Below, piece by piece: positions 5,676 through 32,918 of a DNA stretch of 64,000 bases. The notes under the pieces were generated by a model. The model was not told the origin of the DNA. It was given only the letters and a program-made list of their open reading frames with translations, and searched no databases. The stretch is from Candidatus Latescibacterota bacterium (GTDB lineage: Bacteria; Latescibacterota; UBA2968; UBA8231), in NCBI GenBank assembly GCA_965203175.1, contig OZ241867.1:6144001-6208000 (forward strand), read 5' to 3'. Numbering within the stretch: position 1 is the first letter of the stretch; every line of letters begins with the position of its first letter. The position numbers and the translations under genes are program-made.

Positions 5676-5786
5676 GGATGGAGCGGAGGCGCAATCTATC
5701 GAAAAACCTCTTGTGCTGTCAGGCCGTATATACTATAGATGCTTCTCTGCATTTGCCAGTAAGCTCCATTGACGAAAGGAAGTGCA

Positions 5787-8038: not shown

Positions 8039-9940
8039 ATGAGATTCTTGAAAAGTATTACTATCGGGGCTGCATCCCTGCTGCTTGCGGCAGGAACGGC
8101 CAGCGCCCAGTTCGTCCATGCTGGTAACCCCGATGTTACTAGCCTCGCCGATATGACCAGCGGCGGCAGTCCTACGGTCCTAGAGATTGAAGGCTTGGCG
8201 GATGTATCCAACTACGCGTTCGATGGTTCAGACCTAGAAATCCCTTTTACCCTTTCGGGTAGCGGCGCCACGGTCTGGCTGATCATCTATCATGCTGACG
8301 CGAGTCCTCCCTTGACCATTACCGGCGAAGGGCCAGCGCCCTATAACGATCCCGAACATCCCGATCCGGGCTGGCACGTGTACGAAGGGGTCAATCCCTT
8401 GGTGTTCAAGTCCAACGGCGAGCGCTTTGAAGAAGGCGACAACGCCATCGTTTGGAACGGCCACGACAACGACGGCAATGTGGTGCCCGCAGGAAGCTAC
8501 AAGCTGTTCCTAGCCGCCTTTGACGACGAAGCCGCACCCCATCTGGTGGCCGGTGCCGTCTTCCGCAAACTGGGGACTCCGGGTCGCTTCATCATCGACA
8601 CGGCCAACAACCGCGTCTTCGACCATACTCGCAACAACAATATGAACAACGACTGGATCGAGAACCTTGAGGGATTCGATCTGATTGACCACACTGCCAT
8701 CATTGATGCGGGCGGTGGCACGCCGCTATCCGGCGTGCCGCTCAACAGCGATATGACCGAGTTCATCGGTATCGGCCAGTCCAACCGCCTCATGCGCTGG
8801 ACCGTGGACTGGGATTCCAATCGCCTCGCTCCGGAGGAGGACTGGGGCATTGATAACGACGCCGAGAACGGCATTATCAACATTGAGGAACTGCCCGGCA
8901 GCCCAGGGCAGCGCACCCTCATCACCAATCCCGACAAGACCGTCGCCTATGTCACCGCCGGCGTGACCGGCACGGTGGCCCAAATCGTCTCCTACGACGT
9001 CGAGACCGGTGCCAAGCTAGACACTTGGGACGTGACCGACCTGTTTATCTACGATAATGCAGGCTCCGACCGCGTCGGTGGGCCGATGGAAACGGCCGCC
9101 TTTTACAATGGCGAGCCCCCTCCCGAAGGCATCACCACTACCTCCCACCACACTTCGTGCATCGTGCGCCACAGCTACAATGGCGATCTGATGTGGATGA
9201 ACCGCAACGGCGACGGCTTTGGCGATACCCGCGCCTTCAATTCGGATGACGGCACGTTTGGCGACCTGCTCTACGGCCATACCGAAGCGCCCAACTTCAA
9301 GTACTCGATTTTCGCCAACAAATGGGGCTGGGTCTCGGTCTGTGAAAACGGCTTGGATAACACCAGTTTCGGGGCCATGCTCGGTGAAGACGGCTCCGGC
9401 CTGTTCAAGTTTGAGCCCAAGGAGGCACCGCTGACTTGGTCGCAGCATGTGGCCGTGGTCGACGAGGGCGACGACTGGGACGGCGTGTACATGATTATCG
9501 GCGGTTTCGGCGATGCCTTGGCTTCCAACGAATGGGTGTCCGAGGATGTCGGCGTAGTGCCGCCCACCCATCCAGTGGCCCAGTTCCCTTATGATCAGAA
9601 GCAGGTGACTTTGGGCTCGGCTGGCACTGCGATTGCAGAGGTGGAAGGTGCTGCTACGCCCAACACTCCTGCTCTGGGTGATGCGTATCCCAATCCCTTC
9701 AACCCCGAAACCACGATTCGCTTCGACCTGCCCTGGCAAGCGCCGATCCAGATCAAGATTTACAACCAGACTGGCCAGTTGGTGCGCGTGTTGGCCAATC
9801 AGGTTATGGGTCCGGGCAAATTCACTGTCACGTGGGACGGCAGGGATGACAGCGGTGCAGAAGTATCCACTGGAGTGTACCTCTACCGGATTGAAGCACC
9901 CAATCTGCAGTTGAGTAAAAAGGTCACATTCCTCAAATAA
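8039..9940 (+). CDS. Secreted protein with internal FlgD-like domain and C-terminal T9SS type A-like / FlgD-Ig sorting domain
   Basis: Signal peptide ends ASA-Q. Internal WNGHDNDGNVVPAGSY. C-terminal AYPNPFNPETTIRF...IYNQTGQLVR...WDGRDDSG...GVYLYRI...KKVTFLK. Confidence 0.85.
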   Translation: MRFLKSITIGAASLLLAAGTASAQFVHAGNPDVTSLADMTSGGSPTVLEIEGLADVSNYAFDGSDLEIPFTLSGSGATVWLIIYHADASPPLTITGEGPAPYNDPEHPDPGWHVYEGVNPLVFKSNGERFEEGDNAIVWNGHDNDGNVVPAGSYKLFLAAFDDEAAPHLVAGAVFRKLGTPGRFIIDTANNRVFDHTRNNNMNNDWIENLEGFDLIDHTAIIDAGGGTPLSGVPLNSDMTEFIGIGQSNRLMRWTVDWDSNRLAPEEDWGIDNDAENGIINIEELPGSPGQRTLITNPDKTVAYVTAGVTGTVAQIVSYDVETGAKLDTWDVTDLFIYDNAGSDRVGGPMETAAFYNGEPPPEGITTTSHHTSCIVRHSYNGDLMWMNRNGDGFGDTRAFNSDDGTFGDLLYGHTEAPNFKYSIFANKWGWVSVCENGLDNTSFGAMLGEDGSGLFKFEPKEAPLTWSQHVAVVDEGDDWDGVYMIIGGFGDALASNEWVSEDVGVVPPTHPVAQFPYDQKQVTLGSAGTAIAEVEGAATPNTPALGDAYPNPFNPETTIRFDLPWQAPIQIKIYNQTGQLVRVLANQVMGPGKFTVTWDGRDDSGAEVSTGVYLYRIEAPNLQLSKKVTFLK

Positions 9941-9954
9941 AGTGACTGACTTAG

Positions 9955-9994
9955 TAAGTGCTGCCGGCTGGTACGCCGGCAGCACTTATTTTAT
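9955..9994 (+). terminator. Rho-independent terminator
   Basis: Perfect 14-bp stem TAAGTGCTGCCGGC / GCCGGCAGCACTTA with a 6-nt loop, followed by TTTTAT, 15 nt after the 9940 stop. Confidence 0.85.
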
Positions 9995-10008
9995 GCAGGT
10001 AAACAACG

Positions 10009-12147
10009 GTGCGAATCGATATATTCTTTCGCCTGCCAGCGATCCTAATGGCCTTGGCGCTGCTGTGCAGCAGTAGCCTTTCCGCCCAAGACCTCTCGCG
10101 TGCCACTATCTCTAGCTGGCCCACGACTACGTATTATCTCGGCTTTTTCGAATTTGCAAGCAAAACGGACGGTCAGATCCAGATTGTCGCTGGGGGCCAC
10201 TATACCCTCTATCTCAACGGCGATATAGTAGGTAGCGATCAGGGGCCTGACGCGGCACAATCCTACGAAGTTTCCTTTAAGCGCCGGGTAAATCACGTAG
10301 CCGTAACCGTCCAACACGATGGCCGGCAGAGTCCGTACGGACTGTTCTGCGTGCTGAATGGAGGAGAAGAGCATTTTGTCAGTTCGCCCACAGATCGGGT
10401 CAATCCCTGGTTCTGGACCGGCACCCCGCTTCCCAACGAGGAAGATGCGGATTGGATGACCATCCGCCAGAGGGATTTAGGGGATTACGAGGAAAACGGT
10501 GCAGCCGTGCGCTGGCAGCCCGTTCAAGCCGGCAGTCTCGATCCGGGTATCTATGCCGAGTTTGCGGACTTGGATCTGACCAGGAACTGGAGTATGGCAG
10601 GGTTCGCCGGTGGCCTAGCCGGCCATCAAGGCGGATTGCAACTGCGCGATTTGGCCGGCCAGAATATGGCCTTCAATACGCTGTCGACCGAGCCCAACAT
10701 GGTGGACGGCAACCTCAGCACTTCAGTGAATTTTCGCAAGGGAGCCGGTGCGCTTTTACAGAGTGTTGAAACTGATCTAGGCCGCCTTTTCTCCATTGAG
10801 CGGGTGCGGGTAATCACACAGCCCCCTTCGAGTAGAAACAGTTATGAAGATCTTTCGCTGCGCGGGTATAGCATTCTAGTGAGCAAGGACGGGGTCGGAT
10901 TCCTAGAAGTCGGATCGCAAAATCAGATTGCCACGTTTCAGGAGAGCGAAGTGGTCTTTCCACCCGTTCCCGCCCGCCACGTGCGCCTGACTATCACCGA
11001 GTTTTCCAATCGCAATGCTGCGCCGCGGGTGGGCGAGCTAGAAGTCTACGTTCAAGGGCTGGATCAGCAGGGCACATACCGGTCTCCCCCGCTGAATCTG
11101 GGCACCGATGATCTGAAGAATTTTGAACGAGTCCAATGGTTCGGCCAAGTGCCGTCCAACGCGGAAATGAGTCTGCGCTTTCGCAGCGGCGACGATGGCC
11201 AAGTCTGGAGCACCTGGTCGGACTGGTCGCCGGATCTCGACAGACCGCTGGACGTCCCCGAACCGCGCCGCTTCCTGCAATTCGAATCCCGCCTTGCGAC
11301 CCAAGCGTTGACGGAGGGGCCAGTGCTAGACAGCCTAGTTGTCTTCTACGACAGCGGGCCCATCCCGGCCACTCGGGCAGCGGCCTCAATTTTGCCGCTG
11401 CGCACTTCGATTGGCGTGGATACGCTTTTTACCTATACGCTTGAGTTAGACATCGGGGCCGATGATGCCGGGATTGGACGCTTGGCGATTATAACCCCGT
11501 GGCCGGCCAGTCTGGACAGGAACGATGTTCAAGGCCTAGGTGATGCTGGCATTGCCGATGTGGTGGCCAGTAATGACTCCCTAGTGTTGGTCTTCGACCC
11601 GCCTATCACCTCCGAAACCGGCACTACGGAACTGGTCATACCCTTCACTACCCGGCTGCTGGCGGCTAGCCACGCCTTCCAAGGATTGCTTTTTCCGCCA
11701 GATGCAGTTTCCTCGCTGCGGGTCCAAAAGCGCGAGGGCACCGATCCAAATACTGGATTGGCGTATTCCATTACCGCCTCGGCAACCGATTTCGCTATCG
11801 CTATCCTCGACGATGTGAAGGCCTATCCTGCAGCCTTCACGCCTAATGGCGACACCATCAACGACGAAGCCACTTTGGGCTTTGTTTTGGGGCGAGTGAA
11901 TGATGCCCAGGTCCACTTTGAAATCTACGATCTGGGCGGCCGCTTGGTCCGCACTCTCCCTGCACACAAACTCAATGCCGGGAACTATGCGCCTAGAGAT
12001 GGGCTCGACGCGAGTCTGCCTGGTCGCTGGGACGGACGCGGAGATGACGGCGCAGTACTGCCGCCCGGCTTGTACGTGTTTCGCGTTGTCGTAGATCTGA
12101 AACCCGACAAAAAAGTGGGAACGGGCGTTATAGGCCTAGCCTACTGA
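10009..12147 (+). CDS. Secreted discoidin-domain protein with C-terminal FlgD-Ig / type B-like CTD
   Basis: Signal peptide ends LSA-Q. MVDGNLST...ETDLGRLFSIERVRV...ARHVRLTI. C-terminus FTPNGDTINDE...IYDLGGR...WDGRGDDG...PPGLY...GLAY. Confidence 0.8.
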   Translation: MRIDIFFRLPAILMALALLCSSSLSAQDLSRATISSWPTTTYYLGFFEFASKTDGQIQIVAGGHYTLYLNGDIVGSDQGPDAAQSYEVSFKRRVNHVAVTVQHDGRQSPYGLFCVLNGGEEHFVSSPTDRVNPWFWTGTPLPNEEDADWMTIRQRDLGDYEENGAAVRWQPVQAGSLDPGIYAEFADLDLTRNWSMAGFAGGLAGHQGGLQLRDLAGQNMAFNTLSTEPNMVDGNLSTSVNFRKGAGALLQSVETDLGRLFSIERVRVITQPPSSRNSYEDLSLRGYSILVSKDGVGFLEVGSQNQIATFQESEVVFPPVPARHVRLTITEFSNRNAAPRVGELEVYVQGLDQQGTYRSPPLNLGTDDLKNFERVQWFGQVPSNAEMSLRFRSGDDGQVWSTWSDWSPDLDRPLDVPEPRRFLQFESRLATQALTEGPVLDSLVVFYDSGPIPATRAAASILPLRTSIGVDTLFTYTLELDIGADDAGIGRLAIITPWPASLDRNDVQGLGDAGIADVVASNDSLVLVFDPPITSETGTTELVIPFTTRLLAASHAFQGLLFPPDAVSSLRVQKREGTDPNTGLAYSITASATDFAIAILDDVKAYPAAFTPNGDTINDEATLGFVLGRVNDAQVHFEIYDLGGRLVRTLPAHKLNAGNYAPRDGLDASLPGRWDGRGDDGAVLPPGLYVFRVVVDLKPDKKVGTGVIGLAY

Positions 12148-12185
12148 AGCGTGTAGGTCAATGCGTTTGCGGTCGTTTGCTGTTC

Positions 12186-12218
12186 ACCCGAGATATCTCG
12201 GCGGGTAATTATTTTTTT
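12186..12218 (+). terminator. Possible terminator/attenuator or operator palindrome
   Basis: Perfect 14-bp palindrome CCGAGATATCTCGG (12188-12201); alternative stem ACCCG/CGGGT; T-run follows. Confidence 0.35.
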
Positions 12219-12268
12219 GCCTCGTGTCCCGCACAAGACTCGAGCATTGGGCCACTGTAATTCACGTT

Positions 12269-14962
12269 ATGAAACGTGCACCTATGCACCATACTCTCAG
12301 CTATGCCCTTAGCGTTCTTTGCCTGCTGCTAGCGGTTGGCGCTGACCTAGTCGAGGCCCAATTTCTATCGCGGGACTATCGACGCTTGTGGGCCAATGAG
12401 CTGTTTGAAAACTACGGTGCATCGGGCTATCGCGACTATGACCTAGAAGATGAGAATCGCCGCTTCGACCTATTTGGCAACCTACTGATCGATGGCGTCG
12501 ACGTAGTTGAGTACAGCGAAATTCGCCGCGACGCGCCTGGGATTAGGGGCAGTTTTGAATCCCGCAATGCGCGCTACGATCGCTTCTTCCAGAAGCTGAT
12601 CATCGCCAACGAGGGCTTCGGTTCCTGGTCTACCCGCCTGATAATTGGAGACCACATCCGCACCTTTTTCACTCCGATGACCTTGAATCTGCCTAGCTAC
12701 AGCGGCATTCGCTGGGACGGCTCTTCTCGCAAAAGTCGTTTCAGCGTTATTGGCACGCATCTTACCGATCCGGTGCTCGCGTCGGGTTTAGGATCCCTCG
12801 AACAAAACGCAACCCAACGCCGGATCTTTGGTACGAGCCTGTTCGGCGGACACTGGGAGAGCCAGATCGGCGATATCCTTACGATAGGCTCCACCTATGT
12901 CAACGTGCACCGCTTTGACGCCGAAGCCAATGCCAAAACCAACAGCTTGCGAGGCACTGTGCCTCAGGTGATGCAGGACGGCTTGCGCAAGGTATTCGTT
13001 TTTATTAGCGACGATGCACCGTACAGAGGTTCTGGTGCCGAAGTACACCAATTGGACATGTTCGTAAACGACATCCCTGTACTGCCTGTGCGGGTGGGCC
13101 GGATCAACAACCTGCTCGAACACCTCCCAGTGACTACGGATTTGAGCAGCACGATTCTGTTGCAGCCACACGAAATCGGCTATTTACGCCGCAACCGCGA
13201 CTGGCTGCACGCAGTGGTCGATGCCAGCAATACGCCTTTTTTTCGTTCTCTACTGGCTGGTATTACCCAGGACGTAGCCCCCGCGACGCAAGCTGCTCCC
13301 CTTAGCGCCCACGACACGGACGTTATCTATTATGAATATGTCGTGCCTGATACGGTGAGCCGGATCGATTTCAGTGCCGTCGTGGCCAATGACTACAGCG
13401 TCGATGTGGTCGGAGCCGTACAGGTGCCGCTACTGGCACCGGGAGATGACGATTTTTACTACGATTGGCACAATGCGGCACGCGCCGCCGGCCAAGCCGG
13501 CCAGCGCAGCAATTTGCGCCAAATCCAATTCAACTACGGTTTTCCCACTGGCCTCTCGCTACTAGGTCTTAATTTTGCAGCCACCTTTATGGGCTTTCAA
13601 CTGCAGGGAGAACTCGCCCGCAGCACGACCTTTTTCAAGGTGCCCGAAGCCCAAGGCAAGCGCTACAAGCGCGAAAGTTCAATGTATTACGTCAACATGC
13701 TACGTCCTGTATACGACCGGGCAGAGGTGGGCTTCGAGTTGTTCGACGTGCCGCACGACTACACCACAGATTTCTCTTTGTTTTTTTCTTCAAAGGTAGG
13801 CCCCACTGTCGGCGGCCGACTCTACGATTCGTTCGCACTAGTCGAGGATAACGACGACCTAGACGACTGGCCCGACCGGGTAGAGCGCAACGATCCATTG
13901 GCACCGTATTTGAGCGCCAGCGGCCAAGGCCACGGCGTGTATCCCGGCTTCGATCCTGACGGTGACGGCGTCCTCGATTTTAATCTAGACCTGGATCGCG
14001 GCTCCGACGCTACACAGCCCTTTATAGGCTACTACGCTGAACTGCCTAGCTTGGTTTTCGGTGATGATTTCGACAACAACGGCATCGTCGATTTTCGCGA
14101 AAACGACAATCTACCCGATTACCTATATCCAGTGGACCATCGCGGCTTGCATGGTTTTGTCTCGCTGCAACCTACTGATCGCACCCAGTTGCGGCTGGGC
14201 CTATACCGGGTGCGTCAGCCGGCCCTAGGCACGCGCAACCACTCCCGTTATTTGGAAACTCAGTACCAGCGCGACTGGAAAGATTGGGGCTATGTGCGCC
14301 TTAGTTACCGCATTAAGCGGACGCGAGACAACATCCAGAATACGACCTTTTTCCCCACTTCCGATACCACCTTAAGCCCGGACCGACTAGAAAACAGGAA
14401 CAGCCTCAGCAATCAGATCTTTTTTGAGGGAGATCTGACAACTCTGCCGGCGTTGAACATACGCAATATCATCTCCTTTACCCACATCGACCTAAAGGGA
14501 CAAATCCTAGCCGATCCCGTGGCAGCCAAACCGGGCACGATGACCCGTTTTGCCATGGTGAACAAGATCGACTACACCATAAACCGGGGACGTTTCAGCA
14601 TTTTCCCCCAATTCAAGCATATCTACCAGCGGCACAAGTCGCCCGAACTCCAGATCCCGGATGCCCAGAGCCGCTGGCTCATGCCCATTCTGCGCGTGGA
14701 CTATCGGTTGACAGCCAAAACCATGCTCAAAACAGGCATCCAAGGCTTGCCCTTTTGGCACGAGCGTTTTCTCGATGCGGCCCGTCCAGAGAGCGAGTTT
14801 ACGCGGCTGACCTACACGGCATTTTTCCAAAACAAGAGCAATTACCGCGGCTACGACCTGACCATACTGTTGGGAACCTATCATACGACTAAGAAATTCA
14901 CCGGCTCGACCCGGCCCAAAGACGGTTTTCTGGAATATTTCTTTAGGGTCTATATTGGCTAA
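12269..14962 (+). CDS. Large exported hypothetical protein, probable outer-membrane beta-rich protein (paralog 1 of 3)
   Basis: Signal peptide ends VEA-Q. Amphipathic strands; Ca-binding-like DNDDLDDWPD, DPDGDGVLD, DFDNNGIVD; ends YFFRVYIG. Start uncertain (12224/12269/12284). Confidence 0.7.
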   Translation: MKRAPMHHTLSYALSVLCLLLAVGADLVEAQFLSRDYRRLWANELFENYGASGYRDYDLEDENRRFDLFGNLLIDGVDVVEYSEIRRDAPGIRGSFESRNARYDRFFQKLIIANEGFGSWSTRLIIGDHIRTFFTPMTLNLPSYSGIRWDGSSRKSRFSVIGTHLTDPVLASGLGSLEQNATQRRIFGTSLFGGHWESQIGDILTIGSTYVNVHRFDAEANAKTNSLRGTVPQVMQDGLRKVFVFISDDAPYRGSGAEVHQLDMFVNDIPVLPVRVGRINNLLEHLPVTTDLSSTILLQPHEIGYLRRNRDWLHAVVDASNTPFFRSLLAGITQDVAPATQAAPLSAHDTDVIYYEYVVPDTVSRIDFSAVVANDYSVDVVGAVQVPLLAPGDDDFYYDWHNAARAAGQAGQRSNLRQIQFNYGFPTGLSLLGLNFAATFMGFQLQGELARSTTFFKVPEAQGKRYKRESSMYYVNMLRPVYDRAEVGFELFDVPHDYTTDFSLFFSSKVGPTVGGRLYDSFALVEDNDDLDDWPDRVERNDPLAPYLSASGQGHGVYPGFDPDGDGVLDFNLDLDRGSDATQPFIGYYAELPSLVFGDDFDNNGIVDFRENDNLPDYLYPVDHRGLHGFVSLQPTDRTQLRLGLYRVRQPALGTRNHSRYLETQYQRDWKDWGYVRLSYRIKRTRDNIQNTTFFPTSDTTLSPDRLENRNSLSNQIFFEGDLTTLPALNIRNIISFTHIDLKGQILADPVAAKPGTMTRFAMVNKIDYTINRGRFSIFPQFKHIYQRHKSPELQIPDAQSRWLMPILRVDYRLTAKTMLKTGIQGLPFWHERFLDAARPESEFTRLTYTAFFQNKSNYRGYDLTILLGTYHTTKKFTGSTRPKDGFLEYFFRVYIG

Positions 14963-14977
14963 TATGGGCGGAATCAC

Positions 14978-17767: not shown

Positions 17768-17777
17768 GGTGCTCAAA

Positions 17778-20700: not shown

Positions 20701-20891
20701 ACTTTGAACAGTACGACGCAGTGTTGATGATGACGAACAATTCCCAGTATTTCGGTTACATCATTTCCACCAACGCGGGCATCGGTCGCCGCGTCAAGAA
20801 ATTCGACGATCCAACTCGGGGTGAGACAAAGGACGAAGATTTCACCTCCGCTTTTATTAATGTGATCCTAGGATTCGTAGATGAAACCTAA
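17778..20891 (+). CDS. Large exported hypothetical protein, probable outer-membrane beta-rich protein (paralog 3 of 3)
   Basis: GAGG RBS before ATG 17778; signal peptide ends AFA-Q. Shares RSKFTPLTF..GLRID, EDNDDNDRYPD, FPGLDED, RENDIQPDLPYD, NNSQYFGY. Confidence 0.7.
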   Translation: MVFRVLRNILTATKILWVGACGLALLLFLCTGAFAQEVEDSPEHPRLGPPRLLLDQPYIGQFGQEYYQNYGFEDYSRQPPTTSNLRNFYNSLGDPLLYGTESIRWVERQGLGVRRGFSSQSERFSHGQAPGSSYGSLFNYVIVGTDGTDAWQARAIYANELRSKFTPLTFKMANVDGLRIDVGTEQDKFSAIASNLVPNNTFIVNTMMLGTHYERKLGFLNFGTTFLNAHQFEPRMESGHRTLKGVVGAVQRSTALVAIRISDGSPQDGSGGPVLHGVKVFVNGIHRPEADPFVIRLRARGAERQSYMAGLLRSGDRRPLPELDNDYQAINRGAVWNTYDPYINYASFDTDVFYRGYEFPFWIDHLFYRDFKLYGADHVLNADEEISVNSEFAHELSEFDPTTNPEGQFLGLHTLADLPQTFDGEEYGILYVDLEPFQEQITSVNIELALANDYHVEVSEIDLSGEAGDMPNPNYRDRYNYATFFRTVATTPGNPQDGRVRTVRVKVGAPTGLSIYSANVYGVLKGFEINGEFSRSNSFYQYASGMPAPRVPSEALSVNALNREQFPGTRSTIADNAYYLTIKRDFDRLGLGAELFSMGALYNTELRTYIGRSENNFGSLVAYNNVYLHRLVEDNDDNDRYPDSWYTNRPTIFQGQSDIDGIFPGLDEDRDGIPDTNRNFNGTPDYLEPFLMYDSDPQVYDYGLDLNHNDFIDVRENDIQPDLPYDPGLRGRHLYGTCEPIHRARITLGVMDAEQIAANDPSDFYYGNLGYERQIPALGQFFGVLSVERVEDGVADPLSIYSDEVLTPAQQLDREFAGLQRNIQLSPFLEEPRDDPLLFKNSTYTRMFVDARWKAVPNLKVHNKVKYEINSQHEGELYDGTFQQGNRLSRLTMVHKADYLWQIRPRLGLFSGLKFRYLKERQKTDDLTTAQERHIIPLLKLQYELTLRTRFQLGIQGLGMALPYSVTDEIQPINDFEQYDAVLMMTNNSQYFGYIISTNAGIGRRVKKFDDPTRGETKDEDFTSAFINVILGFVDET

Positions 20892-20916
20892 TCGGCAGTT
20901 TGGGAGATAAAGCGCT

Positions 20917-23900: not shown

Positions 23901-24159
23901 CGAAGTGACCAAGGAAACTCAATACTATCAACAGGCCGTGGAGATTTTTCAGGATGTGATCGACAATTATCCCGGCACCGAGAGCGAAGTCGGCGCGCTG
24001 AGCAATATGGGAGTCTGCTTAGAGGGGCTGGGGAAATGGCAGCAGGCCGTAGAAGTGTACGACCGCGTGATTCAATTGTTCGAGGATAAACGCGCCACTA
24101 GGGATGCCTTTCTATTTGCCCAATCCCACCGGGATTGGATCATCTCCACCCGGCTCTGA
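20917..24159 (+). CDS. Large tetratricopeptide-repeat protein (BamD/CpoB-like TPRs) with N-terminal hydrophobic anchor or signal
   Basis: 1080 aa of A-x-Y-x-x-G...YP-x-S-type TPR units, e.g. LLADYPNARELPDILFGLAESFY and LLARYPQSEFAASVQFTFG. Confidence 0.85.
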   Translation: MNLTLIVGLLTIAGAYFAARTPSEEELVASFQEAQRFYAEGAYDQAIVEYTAVTRVQSKVLTVQNIEVMVGEERFPLRDAALYQIGNAHSKLYQDYTRFAEETPNDEKRAEYQALSDSTFARAVAEFRHVIETATSQVLRIRAHSRLIDLFFTAKAYPEVIAASQEMIANYPNSSQIANAYYNTGWAHYETKNYDRAIQSFEALLVRFSTGYQSDRSLFQIGECYREQGDCLRAIGYYRRLVERQRIETLTEDELLQMKREKMAGLVDETALELAAKAMIRVGSCYAQLGSFAEGLQAYHRVIDLFSTERSLVEEAYLRMADLYREQGNLDAALQTYREAIDQSQDRTLKARIQYALAERLFSQELYEQAIQEYRIYLQGYGDIARVAGFSQDRVRYRIGSSHQQLGQQYLEAGNRPAATGQLEHAIAQYDTLYDAAGSYVLDSQFNRALAHQALATASSVAYARTAYETIIQEDQEAGYTQRALVQLAELLFEQGQYADAAEQAEQLLRTYVDSEFTNEALMRLALSRQAEGDLDQAGVAFLRVAPESPYFVQARIGGGHVFLTQGTHSEAIAALEPAFDQIEDEKQLGSYHYLLGQAYSGQEEYRRAITHFTEALGLSLDSKLVEALHLSRSNAAFAVEDYQQGEQDLHWIIENVEEEEKVRFARNALAFSYIKQNRGGDAVQVLDEMVAQADGPKEKADLLNRMMDLHYDQDNYPQTVRTARQLLTLDFADESASGANGIQEKAYFILGDALLRLGRNAEAIDVFNQALNAYPNSRFAQDMQLALGTHYFSQEKLDRAVEIFTQLKDTKLNPEKALLVSFYLANAHYSLREFAQAQVLFQQLLADYPNARELPDILFGLAESFYQQGQYAEAIVYYQRLLGEFPDEPSADDSQYNMAWCLIELKREKQAMQAFRTLLARYPQSEFAASVQFTFGDYAYNRGDYQEAMRLYLLVQERFPTAEVASQVPRLVAELREAIAYERYEQGIALMDSAEVTKETQYYQQAVEIFQDVIDNYPGTESEVGALSNMGVCLEGLGKWQQAVEVYDRVIQLFEDKRATRDAFLFAQSHRDWIISTRL

Positions 24160-24177
24160 GTGGAAGGTCGCATAACA

Positions 24178-24738
24178 ATGGAAATGCGTTTCAAACAACG
24201 CTGGCACTTCGTTATTCTGGGTAGTGCCTTGATACTGGCCTCTAGCCAGCTTCTCCATGCCCAAGCAGGGACGGATAACCAGCCCAAGGCGACCGCTATA
24301 TCTCATTCTCAGGCCATCGCCCTTTCGGTCGCCTTTCCGGGTTTGGGACAACTGGCTGCTGGGCATCGAATCAAGGGCACGGCACTAGTGGCAACCGGTA
24401 TCGCAACTATAGTGGGGTGGCTCACATCGCACGCTGATTACAATACGCAGACCAATCAGTTTGCCTTAGAAAAAGAACGCTATCTTTCGCTGCAAAACGG
24501 AGGCTCCTTTGACGCGGCGGAAAAAAGCTGGCGACGGCTCGGCAACTTAAAATCCGATCTGGACGGCTCCCATATCCGTCGCCGCTTATTCGGCGTCTTA
24601 GCCGTGGGTGTCTACGGCTACAATTTGCTCGATGTCCTGCTGTTAGATGGAGCGTCTCCCGCTGCGAAGCGGCGAATGCGCATCGCGCCATTGCCACAGA
24701 CCAGAACATCAGGCGTCTTACTGGTTGCCCAGTTTTAG
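24178..24738 (+). CDS. DUF5683-like exported/membrane protein
   Basis: Signal peptide; LSVAFPGLGQLAAGHRIKG and VYGYNLLD motifs; C-terminal Phe. Confidence 0.6.
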   Translation: MEMRFKQRWHFVILGSALILASSQLLHAQAGTDNQPKATAISHSQAIALSVAFPGLGQLAAGHRIKGTALVATGIATIVGWLTSHADYNTQTNQFALEKERYLSLQNGGSFDAAEKSWRRLGNLKSDLDGSHIRRRLFGVLAVGVYGYNLLDVLLLDGASPAAKRRMRIAPLPQTRTSGVLLVAQF

Positions 24739-24762
24739 CATCTGGTCTAGGAGAAACTGGAT

Positions 24763-25134
24763 ATGGAAACCCGAATTTATCTCTTACTCGGTCTGCTGAT
24801 CTGGGGGTGCAGCAACGACACGGAACTACCTATGCAATACCATCGGGGATATCTTGCGCAGCCTACCAATGTGGAAGCGGTAGCCGAAGAAGACAAGATT
24901 ATGGTTTCATGGCATCTGGATTCAGCAGCCAATGTGTCCGGTTTTGTCATTAGCTTCACCGATTCGATTGGAGTCGTGCAAACGCGCTCGTTGGAAGATA
25001 CAGAGGCGAGGTCCTATGAGGAGACAGACCTAGATCTGAGCCCAGGAGTCTGGTATCTGATCCAGGTGTGGGCGGTGGATGCCCGCCTATTTTTCGGACC
25101 GCGCTCGGCAGTAGATACGTTGGCGGTTTTTTAA
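24763..25134 (+). CDS. Fibronectin type III domain lipoprotein
   Basis: Lipobox LIWGC. PTNVEA...VSW...GF...LSPGVWYLIQVWAVD is an FN3 pattern. Confidence 0.75.
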   Translation: METRIYLLLGLLIWGCSNDTELPMQYHRGYLAQPTNVEAVAEEDKIMVSWHLDSAANVSGFVISFTDSIGVVQTRSLEDTEARSYEETDLDLSPGVWYLIQVWAVDARLFFGPRSAVDTLAVF

Positions 25135-25175
25135 ACTGCCTCTTCCGAGCATGAACTTAGCAGGAGTGGCGTAGT

Positions 25176-26411
25176 ATGGTCTCAGACCTAGGCCGTTTTC
25201 AAGCGCCAAGTGATCAGTTAAACTTTAACCGCCTCCTGCGGGAAACCCTCAAATACACCGTCTGGGGGTTACTCATCGGTGCGGGACTGATCGCCGGGGT
25301 CTTCGTCTATTGGCTATTGAGTGTCGAGGAGCGCGACGCGCCGGAACCGGCGTTGACCCGACTCATCATTCGCAAACCTAGGGCGACCAAGACTTTTGCG
25401 CTCAAGCGTCAACGGCTCCGGCCACGAGCCCTCACCAAACAGGTCACGGCACTCAAGCCGCGGCTGTCCACGCCGGCGGCTCCGCGCCTCAAAGGCTCCA
25501 GTGTTTTCGGCAATGTCCAGACGTTCGAATACGCCCTGCAAGCAGACGTGCCAATCAACCTGAAGACTAGCTCCATCGAATTGTCCGCTGCTAAGATCAC
25601 CGGCACCAAAGATCCGGAGAAGCGCATTGCCATGCGCGAGGAATTGATCGATCTGAACGCGCTGGATACGGGTAAATACAAGGGTCTCATCATCCAGGAC
25701 CCGACCGACCGCCGCAAAGTCAAGGGGTTCGTCTATCTGGGTACGGCTTGGGCCAACGACCTAAAGCCAACGTTTGACAGCGCTGCCAAGGCCATCCCCA
25801 ACCTAGTCGACGCCCTCAACGAACAGACGGGCATCTCGGCCAGAGTGGACGCGCATTTATTTATCGATTCTCAAGAACTGTTTCGCACGCCTTTTGTATA
25901 TATCACCGCTACTGAGGCCTTTGAACTGACGGAACGCGAACTAGAGAATCTAGGGAAATATTTGCGGCAGGGCGGGTTCATCTTCGTCGACAATGCCAAT
26001 CCCACCACAGAATTCAGTCAGGGGGAGGCGTCTCTGCGACGCATCTTCCGCGGTGCCTTAGGGGCGCAAGGCCAACTGCGGCCCATTTCCAACAACCATC
26101 CGATCTACCACACCTTTTACGATTTTGACGGCCCGCCAGTGGGTTCCGAACTGGAGATTCCCAGCTTCTCCGAACAGCGCAGCCTTGACCACTTAGTCAT
26201 CGCCGAGCAATCGTATTACCTAGAGGGTGTTTTCCTAGATGATCGCCTGGTAGCCATGTACTCCGACAAGGGATACGTCCATACTTGGGCACGCAATTAC
26301 GGCAATGAACCACAGTTGCGATTTGGCATCAATGCCGTCATTTTTGCCCTGACGCAGGAAGGATCTATCGCCCAGCAGCAGATTGATTTCTTCAGTCAAC
26401 GGGGCCAATAA
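25176..26411 (+). CDS. DUF4159 domain protein with N-terminal TM and Pro/Lys/Arg-rich stalk
   Basis: One TM near residues 27-48, basic linker, then PFVYIT...ENLGKYLRQGGFIFVDN...HPIYHTFYDF...RFGINAVIFALT. Confidence 0.8.
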   Translation: MVSDLGRFQAPSDQLNFNRLLRETLKYTVWGLLIGAGLIAGVFVYWLLSVEERDAPEPALTRLIIRKPRATKTFALKRQRLRPRALTKQVTALKPRLSTPAAPRLKGSSVFGNVQTFEYALQADVPINLKTSSIELSAAKITGTKDPEKRIAMREELIDLNALDTGKYKGLIIQDPTDRRKVKGFVYLGTAWANDLKPTFDSAAKAIPNLVDALNEQTGISARVDAHLFIDSQELFRTPFVYITATEAFELTERELENLGKYLRQGGFIFVDNANPTTEFSQGEASLRRIFRGALGAQGQLRPISNNHPIYHTFYDFDGPPVGSELEIPSFSEQRSLDHLVIAEQSYYLEGVFLDDRLVAMYSDKGYVHTWARNYGNEPQLRFGINAVIFALTQEGSIAQQQIDFFSQRGQ

Positions 26412-26419
26412 GAGAGGTA

Positions 26420-27178
26420 ATGGCCATGCATTTGGGAATTATGCTAATGTTATTCGCGTCCGGCTGTAGCTTTTTTATTCCGCCGACCATTCTGTACAAA
26501 AACGAGCTGATACCCCGTTCTTCCCAAGGCGCTGAGGAACAGTATCTCGTGGGTGACGATGGGTCGGTCGCGTATGCTATAGAGGGCCTGCGCGTCAAGG
26601 TGGAACCGATGACGGATGATCAATTGAATGCACTGTTGCCCGAGGATTCGAGCAAAGGGAAGTTCTCGACGAATCCCTACACCTACGGCAATTGGATTGA
26701 TCCACTGTTGGGTTACCGGCCCAAGCGTTTTACGGTTTTTCGCGTTACGGTTATCAACGATATCTATGCCAAAGTCCTGCTCGATCCAATCAAAGCGCTG
26801 CTCTATACCGACCAGGGCGAGGCCCTGCATTCCTATGGTCTGCCATCTTTTTCGCCGCACAAAAGTTTTGAGCGCTACTACCGAGCCATTCGGGGTCAGA
26901 GCGGCAACGAATTTTATCGCTTTGACCTGCGCATGGGCAATGCGCGTAGCACGGCCTATATAGAAAACCAAAAGGTGTTCAAAGGAGAGAAATATTCAGG
27001 GCTCATCGCCTTCGATCCACTAAACGAGGAAGTCAGCCAAGTGCGCCTAGTGCTCAAAGATTTTGTCCTGAAATTCGACGCCTCCGGACAGCCGCTGGAA
27101 ACCGTGGATATCGCCCTCGAGTTCGATCAAAAGATCGCAACCGAGAAAGTGCGGCAAGCGGAGGCCACGAACAGGTAG
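26420..27178 (+). CDS. Hypothetical lipoprotein
   Basis: Lipobox LFASGC; GAGAGG RBS; lies within the operon. Confidence 0.7.
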   Translation: MAMHLGIMLMLFASGCSFFIPPTILYKNELIPRSSQGAEEQYLVGDDGSVAYAIEGLRVKVEPMTDDQLNALLPEDSSKGKFSTNPYTYGNWIDPLLGYRPKRFTVFRVTVINDIYAKVLLDPIKALLYTDQGEALHSYGLPSFSPHKSFERYYRAIRGQSGNEFYRFDLRMGNARSTAYIENQKVFKGEKYSGLIAFDPLNEEVSQVRLVLKDFVLKFDASGQPLETVDIALEFDQKIATEKVRQAEATNR

Positions 27179-27186
27179 CCAACCCA

Positions 27187-28122
27187 TTGCGTTTGCTAAC
27201 CATTTTATTCTTTTGCACTTGGGTAGGTCCCAACCTCCTGGTGCTCGACGTGGCAATCGCTGCCGAGGGGCCGCTGCCGACCTTGCGCCTTGCCCTGCTC
27301 GATTTTGAAGACCGGGCCGGCTTTCAGGCGGAATGGCATTTGTCTAGGGATGTACCCGATTTGCTGGGTCGATATCTGGATGCAGACGATGCGGTCTCTG
27401 TCATTCTGCCAAAAGAAGTAGAGGCCGTTCAACTAAACAAACAGTTCGAAAAATACCAGGGCATTGACCGGGCTGTGCGGTTAGGGCAATTCTTGGATGC
27501 CGACGTGGTCATTACCGGTGTCGTGGAGAAGATGGGCATGCGCCGAGTGACAGTGGGGAATCCCAATCTGGCTGGCTATAAATCCTACAATTCAGTGATC
27601 CACCTCAGCCAAGTACAGCTAATCAGAGTGGCGACCGGAAAAATAGTCGAGACCTTTGAAACGCGCAGAGACTCCACGGAAAAGTCGTACGGCCTAGATC
27701 TGTTCGGCCGGCCGCGCCAACAGGATCGGATATTCCGCGAACTCTTCAAGGTTGACTTCGGTTCCGAGCGTTTTTTTGATTTGACCTTTGGCAAACTCGT
27801 CGATGTCGCTTTCAGAGACCTCAGCAGCCAAATGATTACGAGTCTGACGGAGCGCCCCCCCATCGACCTTTCCGGCGAGCAGGCCCAGGTCCTAGCGGTC
27901 GAAGCCGACGAGGTGTATCTAGGCATCGGCATTTTGGATCGCGTCGAGTACGGCGATGTCCTGCCGCTGTATGATAAAGAGGTCCGAATTGCTCTAGTCA
28001 GAGTGCATCAGCTCATCGGGCCGCACTTATGCAAGGCCGAGGTTGTTGAGAAATTCGGTGTCATTGACACTGGTTTGCGCATAGGACAGCGCTTATCTAG
28101 AAACGCCAAAGAAGACGATTAA
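27187..28122 (+). CDS. CsgG/FlgT-like (TolB-N fold) exported protein
   Basis: LALLDFED...AVRLGQFLDADVVITGVV...QLIRVATGKIV, plus a FlgT-C-like tail VLAVEADEVYLGIG...GD. Confidence 0.6.
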   Translation: MRLLTILFFCTWVGPNLLVLDVAIAAEGPLPTLRLALLDFEDRAGFQAEWHLSRDVPDLLGRYLDADDAVSVILPKEVEAVQLNKQFEKYQGIDRAVRLGQFLDADVVITGVVEKMGMRRVTVGNPNLAGYKSYNSVIHLSQVQLIRVATGKIVETFETRRDSTEKSYGLDLFGRPRQQDRIFRELFKVDFGSERFFDLTFGKLVDVAFRDLSSQMITSLTERPPIDLSGEQAQVLAVEADEVYLGIGILDRVEYGDVLPLYDKEVRIALVRVHQLIGPHLCKAEVVEKFGVIDTGLRIGQRLSRNAKEDD

Positions 28123-28154
28123 AACTTTTCTCTTGCCAACAAGGAGCGATAGCC

Positions 28155-28901
28155 ATGTGGGAAATAATTCAAAGTGGCGGACCGATGATGGTGCCCCTCA
28201 TCGCCTGTGCGATTCTAGCCCTTGCCTATTCGATTGAACGCCTGTGGATCTTCAGTCAATTGCCCACCTCGGAAGAAGCCCAAACTGAGCTCGATCGGCT
28301 CGAAACCGCGCTGCGCAACCGCGGCGAACAAGCCGTCGTCGAAGAGTGCAACCAAGGCAAGGGGCTGCTCAATTACGTCTTTGCTTCGCTGTTGAAACGA
28401 TACGATACGCTGATGATCGAACAGCGGGAATTCAAAGACACCAACGAGGAGATCATCCGGCTAGCCGACGCCGGCGGCGGCGGGCAGGTCAGCCGGTTTA
28501 TGGTCATGCAGCGGGAACTGGCCGATCTCAAAGACGAACTGGTCATTCAGACCGAGGCTGCCGCCCGAACCTATTTGGGCAAGAATCTGGCGATCCTGAA
28601 TACCATCGGCAACATAAGCCCCTTGCTGGGCTTGCTCGGCACCATTATGGGGATGATCATCGCCTTTGAGTCCATCGCCACCGCCGGGGCCGGCGACCCC
28701 AAAGTCGTCGCGGGCGGTATTTCCCAAGCTTTGGTCACCACCGCATCGGGGCTGATCGTGGCCATCCCAACGATTGTCTTGTATCGCTATCTAGCGCGCA
28801 AAGCAGACAATCTACTCGAAGACGCTGAGATGTACGGCCATGCCTTTGCCAATGCGCTGATCACGACCGGACAGCGCCAACAATACGAAACGACCGAGTA
28901 G
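28155..28901 (+). CDS. exbB: MotA/TolQ/ExbB proton channel family protein
   Basis: GGPMMVPL; ISPLLGLLGTIMGMIIAF; GISQALVTTASGLIVAIP. Confidence 0.9.
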   Translation: MWEIIQSGGPMMVPLIACAILALAYSIERLWIFSQLPTSEEAQTELDRLETALRNRGEQAVVEECNQGKGLLNYVFASLLKRYDTLMIEQREFKDTNEEIIRLADAGGGGQVSRFMVMQRELADLKDELVIQTEAAARTYLGKNLAILNTIGNISPLLGLLGTIMGMIIAFESIATAGAGDPKVVAGGISQALVTTASGLIVAIPTIVLYRYLARKADNLLEDAEMYGHAFANALITTGQRQQYETTE

Positions 28902-28925
28902 CTCCCGCCGGGAGGAGTCAACCTG

Positions 28926-29342
28926 ATGGCTAGACATCGCAAAGATCGTCCCGAGAGCTTTCTGGCCGAAGGCGGTCCGGATATGACGCCTTTGATCGAC
29001 TGCGTGTTTTTGCTGCTGATTTTTTTCATGGTCACCACGGTGTTTCTCCACACCAAAGGGCTAGAAGTGGACATGCCAGCCCAAAGCGAGGCTACGGAAG
29101 AAAAAAAGAAAGATATCAACGTCTTGGTCGATCGCGACGGCCAGATTCAGATCAAGGGCGAGGCCGTGCAGCCGACGGCCTTGGCGGCACGGCTGGTCAC
29201 GGCCATGGACGAGGCCAATAACGACAATATCATCATTCAGGCCGACGGCGAGTGCGCTCAGAAACACGTCGTGTTTGTGGTGGATAGAGCCAAGGAGGTT
29301 GGGGTTGAGGGCATCGCTTTTGTGCGGGAACGGGAGGAGTGA
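28926..29342 (+). CDS. exbD: Biopolymer transporter ExbD/TolR, copy 1
   Basis: MTPLIDCVFLLLIFFMVTT with the conserved TM Asp; IIIQAD. Confidence 0.9.
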   Translation: MARHRKDRPESFLAEGGPDMTPLIDCVFLLLIFFMVTTVFLHTKGLEVDMPAQSEATEEKKKDINVLVDRDGQIQIKGEAVQPTALAARLVTAMDEANNDNIIIQADGECAQKHVVFVVDRAKEVGVEGIAFVREREE

Positions 29343-29755
29343 GTCGGATGCCTAGGCGCAAATCCCTATACGAAGAGCAAGAATTGAACATGACGCCTTT
29401 GATCGACTGCGTGTTTTTGCTGCTGATCTTCTTCATGGTAACCACGGTATTCAAGCAGCCCTACAGTCTGCAGGTCGTATTGCCCGAAGCGCAACAGGGC
29501 GTGATCGTCGAAGAGAAGAAACTAGTCGCCTCGATCACCCAGGACGGCCGCATGGAAATCAACCGCCATCTGGTGACCTTGGACAATTTGGAGCAGGTTC
29601 TGTTGCGGGAAAAAGAAGGCACCCGAAGTCTGACGCTGGTGGTGCGAACCGATCAGGAGACCCCGCATAAGTACCTACTGGATCTCTTCGAGGTGGCTAA
29701 GCGCGTGGGAATTGAAAAAATACCCCTGGCTACGGAAGACCTGCGAGAAAAATAG
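29339..29755 (+). CDS. exbD: Biopolymer transporter ExbD/TolR, copy 2
   Basis: LNMTPLIDCVFLLLIFFMVTT; VVRTD; GTGA overlap with copy 1. Confidence 0.9.
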   Translation: MSRMPRRKSLYEEQELNMTPLIDCVFLLLIFFMVTTVFKQPYSLQVVLPEAQQGVIVEEKKLVASITQDGRMEINRHLVTLDNLEQVLLREKEGTRSLTLVVRTDQETPHKYLLDLFEVAKRVGIEKIPLATEDLREK

Positions 29756-29839
29756 TTTGGAATTGGACCGCCACGGCGAACAACTCCTCTGCAGACGCCC
29801 ACAGAAATCCACCCCATCTGAATAAATGTAGCCTTCGCC

Positions 29840-32830: not shown

Positions 32831-32918
32831 GCGTTCTCCATTTCCCGATGCAGTCAAGTACGGCGCGCAATACAATATCCCCTACGATAATCGCTGATGC
32901 GGCCATAGCGCAAAATTT

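Follow-up and report, generated by a model that had tools for sequence, protein, structure and literature searches.

A candidate proton-motive-force-driven envelope system with giant outer-membrane barrels in Latescibacterota

Within a window of 64,000 bp from the genome of a Candidatus Latescibacterota bacterium (assembly GCA_965203175.1, contig OZ241867.1, positions 6,144,001 to 6,208,000 of the forward strand), we analysed a cluster of 14 open reading frames (ORFs; g1 to g14) at window positions 8039-29755, all on the plus strand and tightly packed. The cluster brings together proteins with C-terminal domains (CTDs) of the T9SS (type IX secretion system), three very large predicted outer-membrane barrels, a long tetratricopeptide repeat (TPR) protein, probable lipoproteins, a stalk protein with a transmembrane (TM) helix, and an ExbB/ExbD motor of the proton-motive force (PMF) type. 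A preliminary description, made from the letters of this stretch alone, had listed 14 co-directional, tightly spaced genes with these domain types, and the ORF coordinates and the Pfam/NCBIfam matches bear it out:

8039-9940, plus strand: g1, exported protein of 633 amino acids with a T9SS-type CTD (FlgD_ig/CHU_C/Por_Secre_tail); signal peptide read from the sequence
10009-12147, plus strand: g2, exported protein of 712 amino acids with a discoidin (F5/8 type C) domain and a CTD; member of the family fam0
12224-14962, plus strand: g3, predicted giant outer-membrane beta-barrel, paralog 1, 912 amino acids; family profile E 6e-242
14978-17767, plus strand: g4, predicted giant outer-membrane beta-barrel, paralog 2, 929 amino acids; from AlphaFold model and fold searches
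17742-20891, plus strand: g5, predicted giant outer-membrane beta-barrel, paralog 3, 1049 amino acids; from paralogy and family profile
20917-24159, plus strand: g6, TPR protein of 1080 amino acids, hydrophobic near its N-terminus; candidate scaffold in the periplasm
24160-24738, plus strand: g7, DUF5683-like membrane protein, 192 amino acids
24763-25134, plus strand: g8, small probable lipoprotein, 123 amino acids, weak fn3 match
25176-26411, plus strand: g9, TonB-shaped bitopic protein with TM helix (about residues 27-48), K/R/P-rich linker and DUF4159 head (197-392)
26420-27178, plus strand: g10, probable lipoprotein, 252 amino acids, short form; its family has no name
27187-28122, plus strand: g11, exported protein of 311 amino acids with a FlgT/CsgG/TolB-N-like fold
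28155-28901, plus strand: g12, ExbB/TolQ-type proton channel
28926-29342, plus strand: g13, ExbD/TolR-type protein 1
29339-29755, plus strand: g14, ExbD/TolR-type protein 2, 34% identical to g13

The gaps between successive genes from g1 to g14, computed from the ORF coordinates, are 68, 76, 15, -26, 25, 0, 24, 41, 8, 8, 32, 24 and -4 bp; because each ORF was started at the first ATG/GTG/TTG after a stop, the real starts possibly lie further downstream. The host genome is a single contig of 6.58 Mb (completeness 93%, contamination 6.5%), and the closest homologs of the cluster proteins, where named by the sources, are assigned to Latescibacterota. The scan of all 14 proteins with Pfam and NCBIfam gave no match to TonB_C, Plug, TolA, TolB, Pal or GldK/L/M/N. 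The g1 protein matched FlgD_ig (PF13860) with 64.5 bits, CHU_C with 33.8, Por_Secre_tail with 27.1 and TIGR04183 with 34.6 (cut-off 23), and g2 matched F5/8 type C with 35.3 bits and FlgD_ig (PF13860) with 27.2 (cut-off 27); profile and sequence searches of g1 and g2 against solved structures returned nothing better than E 0.02.

The arrangement is not due to chance, because six other genera belonging to this GTDB family (G102, G103, G113, G148, G156 and G166; the G113 copy is without g7 and g8) keep the order g1 to g12 (or on to g14), and the order g1-g5 is found in a second family (G005, where the contig ends), the genes of relatives coming from crude calls in which small genes are sometimes missed. 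Synteny, which the preliminary description proposed as a test, thus holds; its picture of a unit that combines a PMF motor, a stalk anchored in the inner membrane, a scaffold of TPRs, a protein whose fold is that of ring-formers and barrels in the outer membrane was upheld, and domain scans, gene order and the g11 fold also support its distinction of the cluster from the canonical Ton, Tol, Bat and T9SS families. Of 168 Latescibacterota genomes, 106 had the barrel, 105 had g9 (at E up to 1e-10) and 99 had g11, and in the 61 genomes of four families (f2, f3, f4 and f14) each of the three scored 0/61.

None of g3, g4 and g5 matched a Pfam or NCBIfam family, and the three are mutual paralogs (blastp E 1.7e-75, 4.6e-79 and 7.7e-45). 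The AlphaFold model of g4, from an alignment of 53 sequences (pLDDT 79.7, pTM 0.80), is that of a transmembrane barrel and not of a soluble enzyme, with about 26-30 long antiparallel strands (counted from the DSSP list), an immunoglobulin-like insert and an Asp-rich insert. Foldseek placed SlpA of a Deinococcus complex (E 1.4e-10) and MtrB (6.4e-9) ahead of LptD and TonB-dependent receptors, with low TM-scores, and in VIA-align, a search independent of Foldseek, the matches were maltoporin with Z 14.7, SlpA with Z 13.8 across 412 residues, SprA with Z 12.9 and MtrB with 441 residues aligned. On this model, g3-g5 are predicted to be giant plug-less outer-membrane barrels. Among very large outer-membrane barrels, SlpA, MtrB, LptD and SprA show the best structural likeness to g4, although the identity is only 7-12% and the TM-scores 0.19-0.26, and, unlike SlpA, LptD and MtrB, g3-g5 are without an SLH domain, LptD N-domain or cytochrome partners. 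As for membership of the SlpA type, SlpA_C had no match on g3-g5 and stayed under threshold (20-25 bits against a cut-off of 35) in three of four distant barrel homologs. In the ESM Atlas, g4 and g10 led only to unnamed Latescibacterota or 'Gemmatimonadota' clusters, with DUF6029 (0.90) and DUF4352 (0.79) as weak leads.

An Asp/Asn-rich stretch of the barrels (about residues 527-625 of g4) carries D529, D532, D534, D566, D584, D604, N608, E615, D617 and D621 invariant in the 62 paralogs of the host genome, and by its residues looks like a calcium-binding insert. In the majority subfamily, the first ~100 residues after the signal peptide (about 20-110 in g4 numbering) are strongly conserved with the motifs WYVPQEL and WEYTNYAR, in a low-confidence part of the g4 model.

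By the family profile, the host genome carries 62 members of the barrel family in 40 loci. In a crude gene call of 5150 genes, 249 genes end in a CTD, of which 169 belong to one family, fam0 (g2 included; CTD present in 168/169). A fam0 CTD gene lies at most 4 genes away from every barrel (62/62), and 115 of the 169 fam0 genes are within 5 genes of a barrel, where 15.8 would be expected; 128 of the 249 CTD genes are remote from barrels. Because all 62 barrels sit beside T9SS-CTD genes, g1-g5 is one copy of an iterated barrel and CTD cassette, in its conserved three-barrel version, so that neither the CTD genes nor the large paralogs are peculiar to this locus. A cassette usually begins with an exported protein and runs through three CTD proteins and either a single barrel or a pair to a peptidyl-prolyl isomerase (PPIase) lipoprotein. 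Barrel neighbourhoods hold 31 of the 38 members of this lipoprotein family, which has two PpiC-type PPIase domains, as well as 15 of 18 host-genome copies of g10-like lipoproteins, 34 of 44 copies of a family-less exported protein of ~315 amino acids, 19 of 55 members of an FG-GAP/UnbV family (5.1 expected) and 18 of 53 members of a DUF6785/6784 membrane-protein family. We surveyed 96 flank proteins of 20 cassettes, out of the 39 that lie outside the window. Of the 123 Pfam families in these flanks, the 25 commonest included TPR, DUF6785/6784, PhyH, ABC permease (4), MFS (3) and sulfatase (2). PD40 (TolB-type beta-propeller repeat) proteins of ~340-370 amino acids were seen inside two barrel loci (6521912-6522703 and 5247601-5248392).

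The right half of the cluster (g6-g14) is a motor/transducer module. The g6 protein scored 220.7 bits against the YbgF-type TPR model TIGR02795 (cut-off 90.1), a sum over 8 repeated stretches of its 1080 residues. DUF5683 matched g7 with 25.9 bits, slightly under the cut-off of 26.7; g7 is single-copy in the host genome and stays beside g6 in relatives. The g8 protein has a lipobox-like N-terminus and an fn3 match (E 1.9e-4), and g9 matched DUF4159 with E 2e-30. The motor proteins are assigned by PF01618 (MotA_ExbB; 100.2 bits for g12) and PF02472 (101.4 and 101.7 bits for g13 and g14), and their best NCBIfam models are tolQ (81.2) and tolR (67.3 and 57.8), with the equivalog cut-offs of 221 and 127.3 missed. 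The host genome encodes five g6-like TPR proteins of ~1080 amino acids, every one in a module locus, and besides the window the module occurs there in four partial paralogous copies (B stands for a barrel):

5.632-5.654 Mb: TPR-g9-g10-x-CTD-B-B-CTD-B
6.497-6.525 Mb: three barrels, g10, ..., TPR-g9-g10
2.789-2.808 Mb: g9 ... B-g10 ... B-TPR-ExbB-ExbD-ExbD-g10
3.053-3.062 Mb: g10, 311-aa protein, TPR-ExbB-ExbD-g9

The relation of motor to barrel is one-to-many, with 5 module loci and 6 ExbB genes for the 62 barrels. A stretch of 1612 bp with exbB-exbD-exbD (window 28138-29749) recurs at genome positions 5537807-5539418, 0.6 Mb apart, with 99.6% identity (7 mismatches); it begins inside the g11 tail and its second copy stands in an unrelated context, so that either the motor genes alone were recently duplicated as a segment or the copy is an artefact of the assembly.

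The absence of a TonB C-terminal domain, as reported in the preliminary description, is true of the window copy and fails for the paralogs. The g10 protein has a lipobox and matched no Pfam or NCBIfam family, and its homologs come in a short form of ~250 amino acids (the window copy) and a long form of 370-450 amino acids. In an alignment of 16 long and two short forms, NF033768 (AgmX/PglI C-terminal domain) matched 16 of 18 relatives, namely all 16 long forms (best E 6e-22), the GltG C-terminus 15/18, tonB_Cterm 13/18 and Pfam TonB_C 9/18. The host genome's own long g10 scored 57 bits against NF033768 (cut-off 40), and one of the four TonB_C matches of that genome is a long g10 gene directly after three barrels. 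By these matches the cluster is only superficially TonB-less, TonB_C sitting on long g10 paralogs elsewhere. We then surveyed 80 g10-centred loci from public genomes with a radius of 10 kb, and a g6-like TPR protein was present in 61, g9 in 57 and a barrel in 51. Two orders recur, ExbB-ExbD-ExbD-TPR-g9-g10(long)-x-CTD-B-B-CTD and, among distant families, B-TPR-g7-g8-ExbB-ExbD-ExbD-g9-g9-g10(long), beside the window-type order B-B-TPR-g7-g8-g9-g10(short)-g11-ExbB-ExbD-ExbD. A complex prediction of g9 (140-411) with g10 (17-252) gave a score of 0.00 and a mark of 0.32 and counts neither way on binding.

The g11 protein had no Pfam or NCBIfam match, and its alignment found nothing (0 matches) among solved structures. 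Its AlphaFold model (pLDDT 83) is closest to FlgT of the Vibrio H-ring (3w1e; E 1.3e-13, TM 0.42, ~300 columns, identity 14-15%), with the LPHT-ring entry 8z5n also found, and then CT253, CsgG, the TolB N-domain, LpoB, PelC and LptE; a precomputed CsgG Pfam match exists for a single g11 homolog. The earlier label 'CsgG/FlgT-like' is right at the level of the fold. Several members of the FlgT/CsgG/PelC/LpoB fold build periplasmic rings under the outer membrane, a likeness that the model extends to g11 by fold only, and unlike FlgT, g11 has no flagellar context.

As to the T9SS, the host genome encodes SprA at 2482242-2487677 and PorU with a PorV-like protein at 2958744-2963097, far from the window cluster; GldL, GldM and GldN were not found and GldK gave only generic FGE-sulfatase matches, with Bacteroidota-based models that matched no control genome. 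SprA is present in 163 of the 168 Latescibacterota genomes, including 61/61 of the families without barrel, g9 and g11, and CTD proteins above cut-off occur in all five genomes sampled from three of these four families. GldM above cut-off was found in 0/168 genomes, a weak negative as the Bacteroidota-based model matched no control genome either. Because barrel-less families keep SprA (61/61) and CTD proteins (in the five sampled genomes), CTD-protein secretion can proceed without this system, and by gene content the cluster is neither part of the SprA-based T9SS nor required for it. The cluster as the T9SS motor was rejected as the main explanation, SprA occurring in 163/168 genomes, families without the cluster among them, and GldM in 0/168. 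The anticipated co-occurrence of barrels with an expansion of CTD proteins is only partial: first-look CTD candidates number 44-166 in 20 genus-mates, and in five barrel-less genomes 23-34 (f3 and f4) and 112 (f14), the count being a crude proxy of which the strict run (E 1e-30) listed only the 20 genus-mates.

Three studies, with four runs between them, supply RNA-library contigs that are 95-99% identical to the window. These contigs fill 20-25 of 30 bins over 9800-29760 and span the junctions g3/g4, g5/g6, g6/g7/g8, g8/g9, g9/g10 and g11/g12. The runs are labelled 'sponge metagenome' in the run listing, plus two coded organisms. Because sponge-metagenome RNA-library contigs match at 95-99%, close relatives seem to be sponge-dwelling and the cluster genes are probably expressed, with the reservation that such contigs prove neither transcription nor a single transcript, that DNA carry-over is possible and that uncovered bins are uninformative. 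Over 10401-30400, 11 promoter-like and 18 terminator-like sites were predicted, no excess over shuffled sequences (11.7 and 21.1).

Among the neighbours of the cluster, a further fam0 CTD protein of 672 amino acids lies on the minus strand at 837-2855, and because of it the cassette may reach leftward beyond g1. The 661-amino-acid membrane protein at 3690-5675 (minus strand) clusters with the 53-member family of which six scanned members carry DUF6785 and DUF6784, and could on this ground be a candidate inner-membrane partner or permease. Directly upstream of g1, at 5769-7871 on the plus strand, a 700-amino-acid protein has a weak transglutaminase-core match; its homologs stand near g6-g10-g11 or beside g11 in other genomes, and it may belong to the system. 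Convergent to the cluster, 29840-32875 (minus strand) encodes a 1011-amino-acid protein with FG-GAP, UnbV_ASPIC and TPR, which clustering places outside the 55-member FG-GAP/UnbV family, a family with the same domains minus the TPR part.

We propose, tentatively and with a likelihood a little short of even, that the cluster is a lineage-specific trans-envelope force-transducing system of the Ton or Agl-Glt kind, built mostly of parts outside the described families; that some motor-to-barrel machine of this sort exists is quite probable. In the proposed mechanism, the ExbB-ExbD1-ExbD2 stator would turn proton flow into movement of g9, which via g10, g11 and the TPR scaffold would act on the three barrels joined in a hetero-oligomer. 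Export of the CTD proteins would be the work of the SprA/PorV/PorU T9SS encoded elsewhere, after which they would sit on or at the barrels, and the few motor modules could serve the 62 barrels of 40 cassettes as one Ton system serves many receptors. The role may be an energised one, in which large substrates that the discoidin-type surface proteins bind are captured and taken up, for which we put the chances somewhat lower. We favour energised uptake over secretion because few motors stand against 62 barrels, a TonB_C domain is present and the surface proteins have discoidin domains. Rather unlikely, in our estimate, is a bolder form in which a third energised gate of the outer membrane exists in Latescibacterota, different in kind from both the T9SS translocon and TonB-dependent transporters, with plug-less giant barrels (62 per genome), T9SS-anchored lids or baits, a split TonB and a dedicated ExbB-ExbD1-ExbD2 motor on a TPR scaffold. 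Here the split TonB, a DUF4159 stalk in the inner membrane plus a lipoprotein with a GltG/J-type TonB_C, would open the barrels from the periplasm. If it holds, the system would be a free-living or sponge-symbiont counterpart of the Glt 'core complex' and would reveal the ancestral function of that complex.

Several observations weigh against such a force-transducing uptake system. The window's own g10 is the short form without TonB_C, and ExbB lies within 10 kb in only 24 of the 80 g10-centred loci, many of them cut by contig ends. No Plug or TonB-dependent-receptor model that could point to a gate for so wide a barrel matches g3-g5. Since a canonical exbB-exbD-exbD-tonB operon (3.503 Mb) and 31 Plug-bearing receptors above cut-off coexist in the host genome, there is no uptake gap for the system to fill. 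With regard to glycan uptake, no glycoside hydrolase is among the 25 most frequent of the 123 flank Pfam families, rarer carbohydrate-active enzymes (CAZymes) being possible. The PpiC-type PPIase lipoprotein found within 4 genes of 35 of the 62 barrels fits protein handling as well as barrel biogenesis, and because genomes of one family are kin, the phyletic agreement amounts to few independent events. We infer the contacts between the cluster parts, and likewise the function.

Secretion or anchoring and the other alternatives stay alive because of the PPIase partner, the plug-less barrels and the flanks without evident glycoside hydrolases. If the cluster served secretion or the assembly of the surface, each barrel would be a channel dedicated to exporting or anchoring its CTD neighbours, comparable to PorP/SprF as partners of type-B CTD cargo, and ExbB/ExbD would power delivery or attachment, perhaps in place of GldLM. 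CTD genes stand beside every barrel (62/62), the cluster CTDs also match CHU_C, a type-B-like model, and type-B CTD proteins are reported in PMC9143113 to associate with PorP-like outer-membrane proteins; a PPIase lipoprotein is near 35/62 barrels, and a PPI is, by the title of entry 8gl8, a subunit of the solved SprA translocon. No T9SS motor of the phylum is moreover recognised, with GldM in 0/168 genomes and GldL/GldN not found in the host genome, a negative that is itself weak, the models being from Bacteroidota with no control genome matched. Nevertheless, SprA persists in 61/61 genomes, and CTD proteins in the five sampled, of families without barrel, g9 and g11, 128 of 249 CTD genes are remote from barrels, and TonB_C-type domains are known to pull outer-membrane proteins from the periplasm and not to push cargo outward. 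The dedicated secretion apparatus of the preliminary description has become less likely with SprA, PorU and PorV encoded elsewhere, and we hold it to be unlikely. A Glt-like adhesion, gliding or surface-motion apparatus, in which the motor would move barrel-anchored CTD adhesins as Agl-Glt does with CglB, gains from the part-by-part mapping onto Agl-Glt, from a TonB_C subtype that is that of GltG/GltJ (15/18 match the GltG model C-terminus) and from discoidin domains as adhesive modules. We consider it improbable, however, as only the C-terminal domain among the Glt family models matches, the cluster shows no MglA/MreB-linked cytoplasmic parts, an adhesin track needs far fewer than 62 barrels in 40 cassettes, and the core complex alone is insufficient for motility in the statements taken from PMC3169522.

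Envelope maintenance of the Tol-Pal sort, with g9 as TolA, the TolB-N fold of g11, g10 as Pal and a CpoB-like TPR protein in tethering or remodelling of the outer membrane, would agree with tolQ/tolR as the best NCBIfam models for g12-g14, with g6 above the CpoB/YbgF cut-off (220.7 versus 90.1 bits) and with the match of the g11 fold to the TolB N-domain. The host genome also has no TolB equivalog above cut-off, a search that found only sub-cut-off PD40-repeat proteins and does not show absence. The tolQ/tolR scores, however, are far under their cut-offs of 221 and 127, TolA, the beta-propeller and the OmpA-like Pal are missing from the cluster, several paralogous copies are tied to barrel cassettes, and the system is absent from 61 related genomes that must also keep their envelope intact, so that very little likelihood is left to this explanation. 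Least probable of all is that there is no single machine and a barrel and CTD cassette merely adjoins an unrelated ExbB/ExbD operon; although about 35 of the 40 cassette loci have no adjoining motor genes and the motor genes can move alone (the 1612-bp copy, 99.6% identical and 0.6 Mb away), the barrel/TPR/g9/g10 junction exists in 4 host-genome loci (the fifth module locus is without an adjoining barrel) and recurs in many other genomes, and both halves share one phyletic pattern.

An envelope machine of this make-up looks undescribed in print. Full-text literature searches found no paper pairing 'Latescibacter' with 'T9SS' and found 'DUF4159' only in a Pfam database paper, and for Latescibacter ExbB the excerpted text of PMC4454575 describes only the canonical TonB-ExbB-ExbD. 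The barrels form a large outer-membrane protein family without a Pfam or NCBIfam model, with 62 copies in one genome and presence in 106 of 168 genomes of the phylum, and this family is tied to T9SS cargo and a PMF motor; the organisms are uncultured. New here are the genome-wide barrel count with the obligate CTD link, the fusion to TonB_C, the recognition of a FlgT fold in g11, the phyletic pattern and the setting apart of the system from the T9SS. That SprA is present across the phylum without a recognisable GldM also makes it a more pointed question what drives type IX secretion in bacteria other than Bacteroidota.

Compared with the T9SS, the force-transducing system proposed here shares CTD-bearing proteins, cargo genes that are each paired with a cognate barrel of the outer membrane, the presence of a PPIase next to the barrels and, in a broad sense, a PMF motor of the 5:2 class, whereas SprA, PorU and PorV are encoded outside the cluster, GldL/M/N are unrecognisable and there are lineages that keep SprA without the cluster. 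DUF4159 loci of the Bat or aerotolerance type combine DUF4159 with BatA_N/vWA, MoxR and DUF58; in the domain scan the cluster has DUF4159 while BatA_N/vWA, MoxR and DUF58 are absent. The order of roles follows Tol-Pal, with a motor, an inner-membrane stalk, a periplasmic protein folded like TolB-N, a lipoprotein of the outer membrane and a protein with TPRs, but there is no TolA, TolB propeller or OmpA-like Pal domain, and all equivalog cut-offs are missed bar the repeat-driven YbgF score. With Ton it has in common the ExbB/ExbD motor, the N-terminal TM helix and K/R/P-rich linker of g9 and the TonB_C of paralogs, and with Ton/SusC-SusD the few motors for many barrels and the barrels beside surface binding proteins in dozens of loci. 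It differs in barrels that lack Plug and TonB_dep_Rec and model far larger than the 22-strand receptor barrel, in a TonB split between the DUF4159 stalk (g9) and a lipoprotein with no single TonB among the 14 proteins, and, from SusC/SusD-type loci, in cassette flanks whose 25 commonest Pfam families, out of 123, are not rich in CAZymes.

The closest architectural analogue, as judged from gene content, is the Myxococcus Agl-Glt/Nfs core, a likeness that the preliminary description had missed; the cluster does not belong to that family. The portions of PMC3169522 and PMC11761067 drawn on here describe for Agl-Glt one TolQ-like and two TolR-like motor proteins (AglR/AglQ/AglS; PMC3169522), the TonB_C-type transducers GltG/GltJ with a TPR pillar GltD of ~1200 amino acids, and three outer-membrane barrels GltA/B/H with the lipoprotein GltK and the surface adhesin CglB. 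Matches to Glt models end with the TonB_C domain and the motor families, and no model of GltD/GltE/GltC or GltA/B/H is among the NCBIfam matches of g3-g6, so that the resemblance lies in architecture alone. The barrels of the cluster have 900-1050 amino acids versus 256-275 in the GltA/B given there, TonB_C resides on a lipoprotein (g10 paralogs, none among the 14) and not on a TM protein as in GltG/GltJ, DUF4159 is borne by the TM stalk, there is an extra protein of FlgT fold, the surface proteins have T9SS CTDs instead of lipoprotein signals, and cytoplasmic GltI/MglA-type parts are not seen in the cluster. Shared with Agl-Glt are one TolQ/ExbB-like and two TolR/ExbD-like motor genes (here g12, g13 and g14), TonB_C of the AgmX/PglI subtype, here on paralogous modules (16/18), and, as far as these portions describe Agl-Glt, a TPR protein of more than 1000 amino acids, three outer-membrane barrels, lipoproteins, a surface-exposed protein and several paralogous copies per genome. 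A seven-gene Glt core, insufficient for motility on its own in the view of the authors of PMC3169522, also occurs in non-gliders including one Fibrobacteres species with its function unknown (same portions of PMC3169522 and PMC11761067), and the cluster points to a candidate function for, and can readily be compared with, this 'core complex', whose role outside gliders has, by that account, been open since 2011 (PMC3169522).

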